DNA from: Escherichia coli
Lineage (GTDB): Bacteria > Pseudomonadota > Gammaproteobacteria > Enterobacterales > Enterobacteriaceae
NCBI RefSeq assembly: GCF_048403405.1
Contig: NZ_CP183129.1
DNA: 64,000 nucleotides
Direction: 5' to 3' (one strand)
Of this stretch, positions 6,723 through 11,488 are shown in pieces (positions within the stretch are counted from its first letter, which is position 1; each line of letters begins with the position of its first letter). The notes beneath the pieces were generated by a model. That model ran no database searches and had not been told where the DNA came from. It saw nothing but the letters and a program-made list of their open reading frames with translations. The translations under genes were made by a program, and so were the position numbers.

Positions 6723-7292
6723 TTATTTTTCTTCACTACGAAGCAGTTCATGCTGTACTTTTGTTAAACATTCGTAAGACTCATCTTTGTTCGGGAGATG
6801 TGCTGTCATTCGAGCATAAGTTGGCTTCTCATCTTTAAAATATTTAACCATGATTGAATTATCAAGGACTGCCAACAACTGAGCTGGATCACTGCTCTTT
6901 TTTTGATAGATACCCGCTCTTATATAACTTCTAAACCGATCGCCGAGAAACGCCGTTTTTTCTGCTGTATTTAGCAACTCCTGCAACGTTCCTTTGGTTG
7001 CATGATTTTCATTAAGGCGTAGTGATCCGACGCGAATTAAGAGTCTCGCCCCGCTTGGTGTGAATTTGTTATTTTTACATATACCAAGTTCTGTTTGCCA
7101 ATAATACTCACCTATGTCCTCATTCTGATACCATCTCCACATGGTTTTATTATTTAAGACAGGAAACGCGGAAAAAATAGTACCCTTAGTGAAAATGGTA
7201 AAGCAATCTTGATCTTTAGCTTGTGTTTCGCAATTAGCTATAACACCAAAACTAACGAATATCATCAGCAAAAAGAACAAAGCTCTTTTCAT
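6723..7292 (-). CDS. Putative Rhs immunity protein (RhsI) with N-terminal signal peptide
   Basis: 189-aa ORF; start overlaps the rhs stop (ATGA, 7289-7292); N-terminus [20 protein letters not shown] is signal-peptide-like; AT-rich. Confidence 0.65.
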
Positions 7293-10200
7293 TTTCTTAT
7301 TCCTCTCGATGTTCTCTGTTTCATTTTAGCTAAAATTTCACCCAAATCATCTATCCCTGCTGTTGCTGGCCCATCGGGTTTATTAATGTCTGGGAATAAA
7401 TAGGGTTCTGCACAAGTATATCCTGGTGGTAATTGAGTTGTTGGCCAAGTTGTCTGTGGCAGGTAATCACTTGCTGTCTTTGTCTCCATCCCTGGATACT
7501 GGGGATCATCCTGCGGCGTACAAGTCAGATTGGGTTTTACCCACTTCCTGCAATACAGTGTGTAATCGTAAGGACTTAATGCTCTGAAGAATGTTTTGAA
7601 AACATTAGGCGCACTACTGGCCTGGTCAATAGGATATGGCAGTCTTAATTGTTTCGCTATGTCTGGCAACTTACTTGGATCGGGCGTAGGCGGTTTGTTG
7701 GGTCTCGCTCCATATCCGCCATTATTTAAGTGTCCATATTTAGATGCCAGTCCCATTGAATCTATATACTGAACCGGATTTAACGGATACTGATAAAAAT
7801 TCCATCCCCCCTTCAGTCCAATCGGATCCTGAGTGATATACCGCCCCTGCAGCGGGTCATAATAGCGGTGGCGGTTGTAATACAGGCCTGACTCCTCATC
7901 ATACTGCTGACCCGGCAGGCGGATGAGCTGCTGCAGCTGGTGCGGGTTATCCTCACTCAGCTGGTTACCCCATTCATCGTATTCTGCGTACCATTCTGTT
8001 GCCCCTTCCGTGCTGACAAGCGCCAGCGGCAGGCCGCGATGGTCGCAGTGGTACAGGTGGATTTTTCGCGCCGGCGTGTACACCGGGTCCATCTGGTTTT
8101 GCATCTGCTCCACCGTCAGGCCGCACGATGCCAGCCAGCGGCGGCTTTCCTCACTCACCCGGTCAGCCAGGATTTCACTTTCCAGCCGGTCGAGCATCTG
8201 CACCAGCACCGGCGGGAACACCACACTGCCACCGTCTTCGCCGCCGGACTGCTGAAGCGCATCCGCCAGGCTGCGGCGCTGCGTTTTCGCCAGCTCACCG
8301 GTGGCGGTTTCGACCCTGATGAGTGGCGTGAAGCTCCCCGGCTGATAAACCGTCTGGATGCGGGTTCTGTCGTTCTGTATCGTGGTCAGCCGGTCGCCGT
8401 CCCAGCCGTACCAGGTCACTTCCGGTTTCCGTGACAGCGACATCCAGCCCGTCAGGTCCCGTTCACGCCGCCACACCCGTTTTGCCACCCTGCGGCCCAG
8501 CGGGTCGTAAAGATAGCGACTTTCGACCAGCGGCTCTGCATATTGTGTCCGCGTGTAGTGCACCAGCCGGTGCTGACTGTCGTAATGGTACCGGTGAGTC
8601 CGCTCATCATCCGTGCGGATAACCCCTTCCGGGATGAGGTCGGTTTTCTCCGTCAGCCTGCCGTGACGGTCATACCGGTAAAGATAGTGCGCGTCACGGG
8701 CGATACGGTTATCCGGCCACATGCTGAGGGTGCTGTCCGGGTGCAGCTCCGGGTCGGGCAGGCGGTTACCTGCCGGGTCTGTGGCATACGGGATGCGGAT
8801 ATCCAGATTCGCTGCCGTGGTGTGGACGCCGGTCAGCCTGCCGGAGTCGCTGTAGCTGTAACTCCGGGTCTGTCGCGGGCTGCTGATGCGGATGAGTTCG
8901 CCGTTGTCGTTCCAGGTGTAATCGCGGTCATACTGCAGGCTGTTCAGGTGCTGGCTCTGTAACTGCCCGGCAGAGGTGTAAGCGGTGGTGAGTTCATAAC
9001 GGCCGAAGCTGCGCAGCGTTTCCCGGTGCAGGCGGTCGCGGGTGAAATCCACCAGCGGTGTGTCGCCGAGTTTCATGCCTGACAGCCAGCCGCTGCCGTA
9101 GGTCAGCCATTCCACGGCGGGCAGGCTGTCCGGTATACAGCGGTTCGCCAGTCCCTGCGCGTTGTACGCATGTCTGGTTTCATGCTGCCAGAGCAGTGCT
9201 TCCGTCTGCGGGTGATGCACCGTCTGGCGCTCACCGGTCAGGCGGCCTTTCTCATCATACCCGTAATGCACCGTCACCCGGTGGCCTTCGCTGAGATGGC
9301 TGATGCCTGTCAGCCAGCCGCGTTCGTCGTACCGCCACTGTTCTGCGGTTTCACCATTCACCGTTCGCTGTGTGATGCGGTCTGCTTCGTCATAGTGCCA
9401 GTGGGTGACCAGCCCCTCATCCTCGCTGCGGATAAGTTTGCCGGTCAGGTCGTGGTGATAACGCTGTGTGCGGCCGTCAAAGCCGGTTTCCTGTATCAGC
9501 CGGTCAAGTACATCGTAACGGAAGGTGGTGTGGCTGCCGTTTTCACTGGTCAGGCGGATGACCCGCCCGGCAGCATCGTATTCCATACTGCGCGTCAGAC
9601 CGCCCTGCGTGGTACGGATGGCCTTTCCCCACGCATCGTACTGTGTCCCGTTTCTGCTGTCGTCCGGGGCAATGACGGCGGTCAGGTCACCGGCGGCGTT
9701 GTATTCATACCGCGTTTCATGGCCCTGCATGTCTTTCACCGCAATTAACTGTCCACGGCTGTCGTATGCGCGGTACTGGCTCAGGCCTTCCTCGCGGTGC
9801 ACCGTCGTCACCTGACCAAAACGGTCATGGTCATAGCGGGTTACATAACCGGAACAGTCGGTAAAGCTCAGCAACTGACCGTAACGGCTCCACGTCATGG
9901 TTTTCCGGCTGCCGGTGGCATCTTCCGTTGCGCAGGGGAAGTCACTGTGTGGATTATCATAACGGTAGCGGGTGATATCGCCGTCAGGGGCGGTTTCCTG
10001 AATCAGACGGCCGGATTCATCATATTTGCGGCGCAACTCCAGCCCGTCAGTCCCGGTGGCTGACGTTAACTGGTTGTGGTGGTTATAGTAAAATGCCGAT
10101 GCCCTGCCATCCGGTGTGGTGATGCGCGTGATGAGTCCCGTCACCACATCCGGGCTGTACTCAGTCGTCCGGCCTGCGGCATCCGTCTGTGCCTTAAGCC

Positions 10201-11488
10201 TGCCCACCGCATCAAACTGACTCTGCGCGACGCTGCCGTCCGCGTGTTCCTTTTTCACCACCCGCTTCAGCCCGCCTTCGCCCTGCGTGTGCAGCACTTC
10301 ACGGCGGTCCAGACTGTCGGTGATGGTGATGCGGTCTTTCTCATACTGATACGTGTAGCTTAAGCCTGCCGGGTTTAGCTGCTCTGTCACCCGCCCGTCG
10401 CTGTCGTAACGGTAACGGATTTCCGGCCGGCCCGCGCGGCGGTGCGCCACCATCCGGCCCCGGTATTTATCATCGTAAGTAAAGCTGCGCACCTGTTTGC
10501 CACTGCGGTCATACACCGCCGCCAGTTCGCCGCGCGGCGTCCAGCCATAGCGTACCAGCGGCGCGGCTGGCAGGTTGTCCGGATATTCCGGGTCGTGCGT
10601 CAGCCACACGGCAGACAGACGGATGCCGTTGTCCCGGCCATATTCGGTGTAACCCGGCAGGGTATCAGGAAAAGCGGACGGTTCCGTCCCGCCGGAAATG
10701 GCCTGCTGCCGGGCCTCTTCTGCCCGCAGCGCCTGCGTGGTCAGTACCAGCCGGAAGTGACGCCCGGCACCATCCGTCACGCCGGTGATTTCGCCGCTGA
10801 ATTCGCCGCCAGCCTCACGGTGGAACGTCTGTGTGCGCCCGAAGCGGTCCACCAGCCCGGTCAGTACCCGGTACGGCGGCAGCGGCGCAGGCAGCACCTC
10901 ATCCGCCTCCGGCACCCGCTCACACCAGCCGAGTACCCACCACGGCCCCTGCGGACTGTTCGTCGCCAGATAACGATGCGGACTTAAGCGGAGTTCTTCC
11001 GGCAGCGCCTGCCAGAGTGCGGCCAGCCGGTGACCTTCATCCAGTTTCAGGACACCGCCACGCACCAGCCAGAGTGATTCGCTGCGGCTGTAACCGTCCT
11101 CACCGGGAAACAGGCGCTCAAAATACAGGCTTCTGCCGCCGTTATCACTGAGTATCAGTGTGTTATCGCGCAGCTGTAAGCGGATATCCGCAGGCATTTT
11201 CCAGCCGGGGCCGAGGCTCCCCACCGGCGCGGGCGTTTTTGTCCGGTAACTGCTGTAGGTGCGGGAGAGGATGAACGGCAGCGGGCCGGGCAGTGCAAGG
11301 TCGGTTTCGCCGGGAAGGACCTTCGCACCGAGCAGCGGATTGACCGGATGGCCGGACGTCACCCCGCCGGGGCACACCGAACAGGCCACACCGGTGGGGG
11401 CACCGATGCGCACCCCGGCTGAACCCTGGACAATGCTACCGCCATACTGCGTCATGTCGCCCTGACGCGCCGCCGGTTTTCCGCTCAT
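7289..11488 (-). CDS. rhsB: Rhs-family protein (RhsB-like) with PAAR-like N-terminus, YD-repeat core and a 151-aa divergent C-terminal tip
   Basis: 1399-aa ORF; N-terminus [42 protein letters not shown] typical of E. coli Rhs; many YD repeats; GC-rich core next to nikR as for rhsB in K-12; C-terminus after ...[11 protein letters not shown] is AT-rich and unrelated to core. Confidence 0.9.
7761..8217. repeat. Direct repeat copy B (Rhs core 3' end in main gene), homologous to 2912..3368
   Basis: See copy A. Confidence 0.85.

Follow-up and report, generated by a model that had tools for sequence, protein, structure and literature searches.

The rhs gene at the rhsB locus of this Escherichia coli genome, together with the small gene that overlaps its 3' end, is best explained as a polymorphic Rhs toxin–immunity pair, in which the C-terminal tip of the Rhs protein would act on the cell envelope and the immunity protein would be exported (we put the probability of this reading at about 0.65). 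Our analysis covered a stretch of 64,000 nucleotides, referred to here as the window, and the features on which the argument turns are these:

7289..11488, minus strand: full-length rhs gene, 1399 aa (open reading frame; NCBIfam RHS_core at residues 1–1247)
11120..11488, minus strand: N-terminal delivery region, residues 1–123, a PAAR motif followed by DUF6531 (Pfam and translation)
7748..7828, minus strand: end-of-core autoproteolysis motif DPIGL-(17)-DSMGL, residues 1221–1247, with predicted cleavage just after it (translation)
7292–7744, minus strand: 151-aa tip, the last 151 residues of the Rhs protein
7640..7744, minus strand: Pro-rich linker, tip residues 1–35, variable in distant homologues (profile matches; pLDDT)
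7292..7639, minus strand: conserved YbfO-type domain, the predicted toxin, tip residues 36–151 (alignments A1 and A2; AF2; dN/dS)
6723..7292, minus strand: putative cognate immunity gene of YbfC type, 189 aa (open reading frame; ATGA overlap; identity to K-12 YbfC)
7236..7292, minus strand: predicted Sec signal peptide, residues 1–19, then NC (rule-of-thumb criteria)

That the Rhs core is canonical, as a preliminary description of this DNA had held, was borne out by the profile searches. RHS_core (NCBIfam NF041261) covered residues 1–1247 at 2616 bits, against a curated cut-off of 2000 bits, with the model ending exactly at the leucine of DSMGL, and Pfam placed DUF6531 (PF20148) at residues 46–123 (E = 1.4e-17) along with 12 RHS_repeat matches at E ≤ 0.001 and PF03527. 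A PAAR motif, KPAARQGD, can be read from the translation at residues 4–11, though no PAAR domain was called by Pfam. The gene lies between nikR and the yhhJ side, which identifies the locus as rhsB, and the same nikABCDE–nikR/yhhJ context was seen at the identical locus in a RefSeq genome. Moreover, up to about residue 1200 the core shares about 97% identity with K-12 RhsB and RhsC, after which the figure drops to 48–50% in the 1201–1300 block, which holds the core/tip junction (1248/1249), and to 21–24% over residues 1301–1399. K-12 RhsB, while sharing the locus (nikR side) and nearly all of the core, thus ends in a tip wholly unlike that of the window (24% identity over the last 100 residues), and its immunity gene is yhhH, encoding a PF15631 family protein, where the window carries the YbfC type instead. 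Neither vgrG nor any other T6SS gene was found near the rhs gene in the window or at the identical RefSeq locus, and neither an Eag chaperone nor an N-terminal transmembrane region was seen at the window locus; E. coli clade I rhs genes generally do not adjoin vgrG (PMC2935791).

More conspicuously, the tip is 98% identical over 151 residues to the C-terminus of K-12 YbfO (b0703), an orphan Rhs fragment within the rhsC element, and over 189 residues the immunity protein matches K-12 YbfC (b0704) at 93% identity. The K-12 proteins have the same DSMGLA in the one case, and the same signal peptide and four cysteines in the other. We regard it as nearly certain that the window genes form a Rhs toxin/immunity pair of the same kind as ybfO/ybfC. 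Where the two differ is in the carrier, in that K-12 YbfO bears the tip on a 477-aa core fragment at the rhsC locus that lacks the N-terminal delivery region, whereas in the window a complete Rhs at the rhsB locus carries it as an in-frame fusion. Clade I rhs loci have been documented to share tips (PMC2935791). Indeed, this architecture and the displacement of tips between rhs loci are textbook for the Rhs family and hold no surprise for a specialist; the module is new neither in sequence nor in architecture, and exemplifies the ordinary swapping of Rhs tips. The tip had earlier been called unrecognised, which is correct in that no described toxin family matches it, but its sequence is a known one.

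Of 5426 complete E. coli genomes, 3613 contained the tip–immunity module, nearly always as a single copy and mostly as an orphan fragment. A plasmid collection yielded only Mb-sized or chromosome-like 'plasmid' records, and thus no sign that plasmids carry the module. Other strains, too, carry the YbfO-type tip on a full-length Rhs; in strain 319 this Rhs occupies the rhsC locus, and the same NTF2 and DUF6258 genes come after it. The literature that we found mentioning ybfC/ybfO or RhsB tips contained no functional work on them, and the 'RhsB' of an EHEC in-silico paper was set aside as a different gene with a DUF4329 tip.

The tip is low in GC, as first described (43.4% versus 61.9% for the remainder of the rhs gene), and rich in proline (22 of 151 residues, 14.6%), while its description as Cys-rich was overstated, there being only three cysteines (tip positions 65, 75, and 111), an odd number, though all are conserved. 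Distant homologues match only profile positions of about 34–151, and AF2 assigned pLDDT values below 50 to the linker (tip residues 1–35). The AF2 model of the last 151 residues reached a mean pLDDT of 65.8 with a 20-sequence alignment that included distant members, its core being at about 80–86, and 42.6 with a nine-sequence alignment; the predicted topology is α, three strands, and α. Within the domain, Asp133 is invariant, many aromatic and acidic residues are conserved, and a predicted amphipathic helix at the C-terminus ends in a conserved basic R-K, while the alignments of the tip family contain no conserved His. The family extends to other genera at identities as low as about 35%, its invariant residues retained. 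Between the window and K-12 alleles, dN/dS is 0.10, and the tip is under purifying selection.

Searches for relatives of the tip gave little. Pfam returned zero matches for the tip with the core end and for 20 tip-family members searched singly, NCBIfam and PHROGs likewise for the tip or the immunity protein, and when PDB sequences were searched, whether with single sequences or with profiles A1, A2, and A3, the hits for both proteins stayed at chance level. No significant profile or fold match was obtained to described toxin families (Tox-/Ntox-/colicin Pfam, NCBIfam, PHROGs) or to solved folds, although, since the structure model is only moderate, the lack of fold matches is weak evidence. 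The tip-family Salmonella clusters supplied six accessions, none of which occurs in the supplement on the new Salmonella 'STox' families, which consists of accession numbers only. As a lead only, the S-P-Y-D-Y..C-R-K of the tip presumably resembles the D-x-Y-D..H-R motif of colicin M; Pfam Colicin_M did not match the tip, and the tip family has no conserved His.

The second gene answers to what had been described. Its 189-residue open reading frame (GC 37.5%) overlaps the rhs stop, as read directly, with ...AGA AAA TGA joined to ATG as ATGA. The proposed signal peptide likewise holds up by rule-of-thumb criteria: the N-terminus is basic, the best 10-residue hydrophobic window has a mean KD of 3.22, V-I-A before the predicted cleavage site fits the -3/-1 rule, and there is no other TM-like segment (maximum 19-residue KD 0.54). 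By the same test, a basic N-terminus and a hydrophobic stretch without a further TM segment are found in 13 of 13 YbfC homologues. Across these homologues, for which Pfam gave zero matches, Cys30 and Cys175 are invariant, and Cys21 and Cys72 are both present in nine and both absent in four, as two disulfides would lead one to expect. Between the window and K-12 alleles, the immunity gene has a dN/dS of 0.26 with 14 non-synonymous differences. The prediction that the immunity protein is a Sec-exported periplasmic protein is supported. A lipoprotein reading of the E. coli allele was rejected, because N or D occupies position -1 relative to the Cys; a lipobox-like I-A-A-C is present in a few YbfC homologues.

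At five distant loci, on unrelated contigs, a tip of about 35–40% identity is each time followed by a YbfC homologue with a signal peptide (188–207 aa), which either overlaps the tip gene or follows it within a few bases. Over the six loci compared (the window, L003, L006, L009, L010, and L012), the tips share 35–100% identity and the YbfC homologues 20–100%, and tip and downstream gene are co-inherited across these divergent loci. No second conserved candidate immunity gene was found next to the tip, and at one distant locus VgrG, DUF2169, and PAAR-like genes adjoin the tip gene. Because the downstream open reading frame encodes a protein predicted to be exported, the periplasm or envelope is the best reading for where the tip acts. 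This site, already suggested in the preliminary description, gains from the signal-peptide-bearing partner at all five distant loci and from the paired cysteine pattern, and, on such sequence evidence, we consider a periplasmic site of action to be probable.

The pair could then have come about and function as follows. A rhsB-locus core, with its PAAR motif, DUF6531, and YD-repeat shell, would have gained the tip and immunity block via recombination within the conserved core, this block being what K-12 seems to keep as the displaced orphan ybfO/ybfC in the rhsC element. A type VI secretion spike, with the Rhs protein mounted on it, would be fired into a neighbouring cell, where the aspartyl-protease plug would cut after DSMGL to release the 151-aa tip. 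The tip domain of about 115 residues would fold in the oxidising periplasm of the target, two of the three conserved cysteines probably forming a disulfide, and damage a component of the envelope. Meanwhile, the producer and its siblings would export the YbfC-type protein to the periplasm via its Sec signal peptide, and this protein, stabilised by one or two disulfides, would neutralise the tip by binding.

Several known systems share parts of this scheme. In Rhs1/Tre23 of Photorhabdus laumondii and TseI of Aeromonas dhakensis, there is the same YD-repeat shell and aspartyl-protease plug, two D-x-x-G-L motifs lie 17–18 residues apart as in the window Rhs, and the toxin is freed after the second motif, with the immunity gene directly downstream (PMC8636562; PMC7170923), cleavage being a prediction in the window Rhs. 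The second motif in the window is DSMGL and not DPLGL, and the tips of those proteins act in the cytoplasm (as ADP-ribosyltransferase and nuclease), unlike the one proposed here. Conversely, Tae/Tai amidases, Tlde1, Tox-Act1/Imm-Act1, and Tse5 follow the logic that we propose, in which a toxin harmful in the periplasm is countered by an exported or membrane-associated immunity protein (PMC12994826). However, the window tip has no sequence or fold similarity to these and, since no His is conserved, is without a Cys-His pair of the papain, NlpC/P60, or YkuD type; most of the group, moreover, are cargo effectors and not Rhs fusions. PT4, from the Levy-lab 'PT' toxins, is periplasmic and T5SS-linked, and we set it apart by its description, given that its architecture and host range differ from those of the window module.

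As for the target, our best guess, and a tentative one, is the cell wall (peptidoglycan or its lipid-linked precursor), because the domain is soluble and has no hydrophobic segment, conserved aromatic and acidic residues, and no conserved His. More doubtful still is the notion that the YbfO-type tip might found a new fold, as a small disulfide-dependent periplasmic toxin with an undescribed envelope action (it might bind or cleave a precursor of the cell wall, for instance, with no need of the usual Cys-His or metal centre) and its own dedicated immunity fold, carried by roughly two thirds of E. coli including K-12. Alternatively, instead of attacking the wall enzymatically, the tip might disturb the inner membrane from the periplasmic side by forming pores or causing depolarisation. 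Pore-forming Rhs toxins such as Tse5 do exist (PMC9637101, PMC10684867). Such an action would be compatible with periplasmic immunity and with the predicted amphipathic helix and its basic R-K end, and yet the tip domain lacks any hydrophobic or glycine-zipper segment (its 19-residue KD peaks at 0.14). Immunity to pore formers is usually membrane-embedded, and since the only membrane segment of the immunity protein here is its signal peptide, this too speaks against a pore; we consider this alternative unlikely.

That PAAR-Rhs effectors are usually fused to cytoplasm-acting toxins (PMC12994826) counts against the periplasmic reading, and would instead suit a tip that acts in the cytoplasm as a nuclease or translation inhibitor, with the exported YbfC protecting indirectly or not being the immunity factor. 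Neither is the predicted topology incompatible with small RNase-like folds. Nonetheless, profile and fold comparisons (the latter with the moderate AF2 model) found no nuclease, deaminase, or ART match, and no His is conserved. Besides, the gene kept beside the tip at the five distant loci is always predicted to be exported and has the disulfide-type cysteine pattern, with no other conserved immunity candidate alongside. Taken together, this makes a cytoplasmic tip improbable.

Some observations could also point to the module being a decaying relic, with a tip no longer toxic and a ybfC that hitch-hikes or is kept for some other reason. The annotation of K-12 treats ybfO as a pseudogene, orphan fragments account for most E. 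coli copies, and, in strain 319, the ybfC beside the full-length Rhs is annotated as frameshifted, which, if real, would mean that a cell can tolerate the toxin while lacking the immunity gene; to our knowledge, K-12 also lacks a T6SS. Against this, the window tip continues the reading frame of an intact 1399-aa gene, other strains also have it on full-length Rhs, both genes have low dN/dS values between the window and K-12 alleles, and the family is retained with its invariant residues in other genera, so that a relic seems quite improbable.

Rhs tips harbour antibacterial activities in large number, and because most of those characterised act in the cytoplasm, a widespread E. coli tip acting on the envelope, with no recognisable fold and a dedicated immunity protein predicted to be exported, would be worth characterising. 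The toxin–immunity reading would also offer a likely role for two long-unexplained K-12 genes, with ybfC as an orphan immunity gene against the YbfO-type toxins of neighbours and ybfO as a displaced toxin cassette. The presence of the module in the best-studied bacterium makes such work easy.

Lastly, the end-of-core motif was described by Jackson et al. (2009) as DPXG-(18)-DPXG in all Rhs (PMC2935791), and in Photorhabdus Rhs1 the second-motif Asp acts as the catalytic residue, and D1338N abolishes cleavage (PMC8636562). In the window Rhs, the motif is DPIG-(18)-DSMG, with both Asp, both Gly, and the spacing kept, and the second Pro replaced by Ser. The earlier suggestion that DSMGL may impair autoproteolytic release is not sustained by the comparison of this region across Rhs alleles, in which DP is the majority form (24 of 27 related Rhs fragments reaching the second motif), yet within the YbfO-type tip family the residue after the Asp is S, P, or A, with DSIGL in a 37%-identical member. 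On whether DSMGL is common among functional Rhs proteins the comparison bears only indirectly: the motif is very common, the allele being carried by thousands of genomes under purifying selection. Autocleavage is thus predicted, with good confidence from the conserved residues, to be intact. A Pro-to-Ser change that blocks or slows C-terminal autoproteolysis, leaving the tip on the core and the protein inactive or working in another way, would find favour in the prevalence of Pro at this position, but is very improbable in view of the retained catalytic Asp and spacing, the alternation of DS, DA, and DP in the tip family, the abundance of the DSMGL allele, and the DSLGL that accompanies an unrelated tip in a Rhs fragment from a Shigella sonnei cluster of 118 sequences.

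7289-11488, minus strand: rhs open reading frame of 1399 codons
7292-7744, minus strand: tip, the last 151 residues of that frame, 43.4% GC
6723-7292, minus strand: immunity open reading frame, 189 aa and 37.5% GC, its ATG overlapping the rhs stop codon as ATGA

Residues 1-1247 of the window Rhs match the NCBIfam RHS_core model at 2616 bits (cut-off, 2000 bits), which places the protein in the Rhs core family, and this match ends exactly at the Leu of DSMGL. Pfam adds DUF6531 (residues 46-123) and a dozen RHS repeats, while a PAAR motif (KPAARQGD) can be read at the extreme N-terminus. 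Judged by its sequence, this is an intact PAAR-motif/DUF6531/YD-shell protein with a conserved protease plug. The region is 100% identical to many RefSeq E. coli chromosomes, one of which (WCHEC4533) has the gene at the rhsB locus, with nikR on one side and the yhhJ side on the other. K-12 RhsB, from the same locus, has a core that is ~97% identical, but differs in its immunity gene, yhhH, and in its tip, which is unrelated.

We found that the window tip, DSMGLA included, is 98% identical to the C-terminus of K-12 YbfO, a 477-codon orphan Rhs fragment of the rhsC element, listed as a pseudogene in RefSeq. Moreover, the downstream frame is 93% identical to K-12 YbfC, and the pair is a member of the ybfO/ybfC family. 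Of 5426 complete E. coli genomes, 3613 contain the tip-plus-immunity block, nearly all in single copy; in 284 the identity to the window allele is 99% or more, and ~3300 have the ybfC allele at 95-99% identity, mostly beside orphan fragments and in some cases beside full-length Rhs. At the rhsC locus of strain 319, for instance, a full-length Rhs bears the tip, and the NTF2 and DUF6258 genes come after it, as in the window. The placement of the window module is tip exchange as Jackson et al. (2009; PMC2935791) describe for clade I rhs loci. Since the 1990s the sequence has been part of the known K-12 genome, and the evolutionary process behind the placement at rhsB is well described. Comparing window 6723-7744 with the K-12 ybfO/ybfC locus (L008, 8195-9220), we noticed that the immunity gene is more diverged than the toxin gene (dN/dS of 0.26 versus 0.10). 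In strain 319 (L013, 9001-9571), ybfC is annotated as frameshifted beside the full-length Rhs; the sequencing is in error, or else this strain tolerates the toxin gene without intact immunity. Of the tip-bearing records in the plasmid collection (H66-H70), each is a chromosome-sized sequence, a large E. coli fragment or a 10-kb scrap; they give the impression of chromosomal DNA under a wrong label, not of true carriage on plasmids.

The GC content falls from 61.9% in the remainder of the rhs gene to 43.4% in the tip, which has 22 prolines and three cysteines; the preliminary description of the Rhs protein, tip and downstream frame is therefore accurate, except that "Cys-rich" overstates three residues. 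Its remark that the tip matches no recognisable toxin family also holds, as no match was found in Pfam (for this tip or any of 20 family members), NCBIfam, PHROGs or the PDB sequences (single-sequence or profile query), and the tip belongs to no described toxin domain family. An HMM run exhaustively against 1.84 billion cluster representatives gave only 27 proteins at E<=0.001. Relatives that extend upstream of the tip all have an Rhs core and the others are short tip fragments, apart from one marginal match within a 2084-aa protein. Distant members (~35-40% identity) align only over tip positions ~34-151, which delimits a domain of ~115 aa after a variable Pro-rich linker. Conserved in the family alignment are Cys65, Cys75, Cys111, Asp133, a P-x-G-Y-x-C block, many aromatics and prolines, and a C-terminal helix with an R-K end, and there is no conserved histidine. 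The tip, with its low dN/dS against K-12, is a conserved domain under purifying selection.

In genomic context, each of five distant tips overlaps, or is separated by no more than a few bases from, a downstream gene for a protein of 188-207 aa that aligns with YbfC at 20-32% identity. All 13 aligned immunity homologues begin with one to three basic residues and a hydrophobic stretch (mean KD of the best 10-residue window, 2.35-3.46), followed by a small-x-small site, and none of the 13 has a further membrane-like segment. Here, Cys30 and Cys175 are invariant, while Cys21 and Cys72 occur together in nine homologues and are jointly missing from four, so that two disulfides, and hence a periplasmic protein, would be expected. 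The E. coli alleles have N or D before Cys21 and hence no lipobox, so their product is most likely a soluble periplasmic protein. The tip partner thus appears to be a co-inherited exported protein, and the earlier suggestion that the toxin acts in the periplasm or envelope gains comparative support from the apparently exported partners of the five distant tips and the cysteine pattern. In some homologues (P0075, P0080, and those of the distant loci L003 and L012), the signal peptide ends in I-A-A-C, M-A-S-C or A-L-A-C (alignment columns 17-23), which has the look of a weak lipobox; part of the family could be lipoproteins, though the E. coli alleles (A-N-C, A-D-C) cannot. At another distant locus (L009), one YbfO-type orphan tip is followed by two YbfC-like genes in tandem (3735-4301 and 4404-4976), the second being an extra orphan immunity paralogue, and the full-length Rhs upstream bears an unrelated Gly/Ala-rich hydrophobic tip.

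The core of the window Rhs ends in DPIG-(18)-DSMG, and Jackson et al. give the same spacing for all Rhs proteins. In Photorhabdus Rhs1, the Asp of the second motif is catalytic for C-terminal cleavage, which D1338N abolishes (PMC8636562); the window Rhs keeps this Asp and only the following Pro is replaced. Within the tip family, that position is S (in E. coli, Salmonella and Phytobacter, as well as in a DSIGL member at 37% identity), P or A. Among 27 related enterobacterial Rhs fragments reaching the motif it is P in 24 and S in three, and one of these three, a Shigella sonnei cluster, bears another tip. Although in the minority, the Ser variant recurs, is old and is present in thousands of genomes. 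Against K-12, dN/dS is 0.12 for the core adjoining the tip, about as low as for the tip itself. Contrary to the initial suspicion that DSMGL might affect autoproteolytic release, these observations argue that the replacement is probably harmless to tip release.

From what is known of Rhs effectors, the window Rhs would be delivered on a T6SS spike and autocleaved after DSMGL, and the tip, freed in the target's periplasm, would fold oxidatively there and damage an envelope component; in kin cells, periplasmic YbfC would neutralise it. The module would then work in the same way as other Rhs toxin/immunity pairs, with a logic like that of periplasm-acting T6SS effectors with exported immunity proteins. 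We put at roughly one in four the probability that the tip represents a periplasmic toxin with a novel fold and mode of action that most E. coli carry. Counting against the delivery and envelope model as a whole are the usually cytoplasmic toxins of PAAR-Rhs tips (PMC12994826), the lack of T6SS genes at the window rhs locus and the annotation of ybfC as frameshifted in strain 319. As the target, we tentatively and weakly favour cell-wall glycan or a lipid-linked precursor, because conserved aromatic and acidic residues are abundant. A pore former seems improbable, as the tip domain lacks a hydrophobic segment and the immunity protein is apparently soluble. Without a conserved His, papain/NlpC-P60, YkuD or zinc amidase chemistry is also unlikely.

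The following genes lie beyond the cognate immunity gene, on its downstream side.

6207-6554, minus strand: 115-aa protein with a signal-peptide-like N-terminus, RefSeq "NTF2 fold immunity protein"
5304-5624, minus strand: DUF6258 protein
4690-5067, minus strand: pentapeptide-repeat protein
3396-4253, minus strand: HEAT-repeat protein, annotated yibA
2689-3354, minus strand: orphan fragment of an Rhs core, bearing a short tip of another kind
1896-2375, minus strand: Sel1-like exported protein
1132-1566, minus strand: ISAs1-family (H-repeat) transposase, N-terminal fragment, lying at the Rhs element's outer edge
22-978: yhhJ, adjoining the transposase fragment

The low-GC string of small genes at 4690-6554 (minus strand), none of which is preceded by a toxin tip, is typical of an Rhs orphan-immunity array. 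The block at 1896-4253 is presumably similar to yibA-yibJ-yibG of the K-12 rhsA element, in which case the window rhsB element combines, as a mosaic, segments familiar from rhsC and from rhsA elements. Ser occurs in the first motif (DSIGL) of this block's orphan Rhs fragment, whose second motif is DPFGL.
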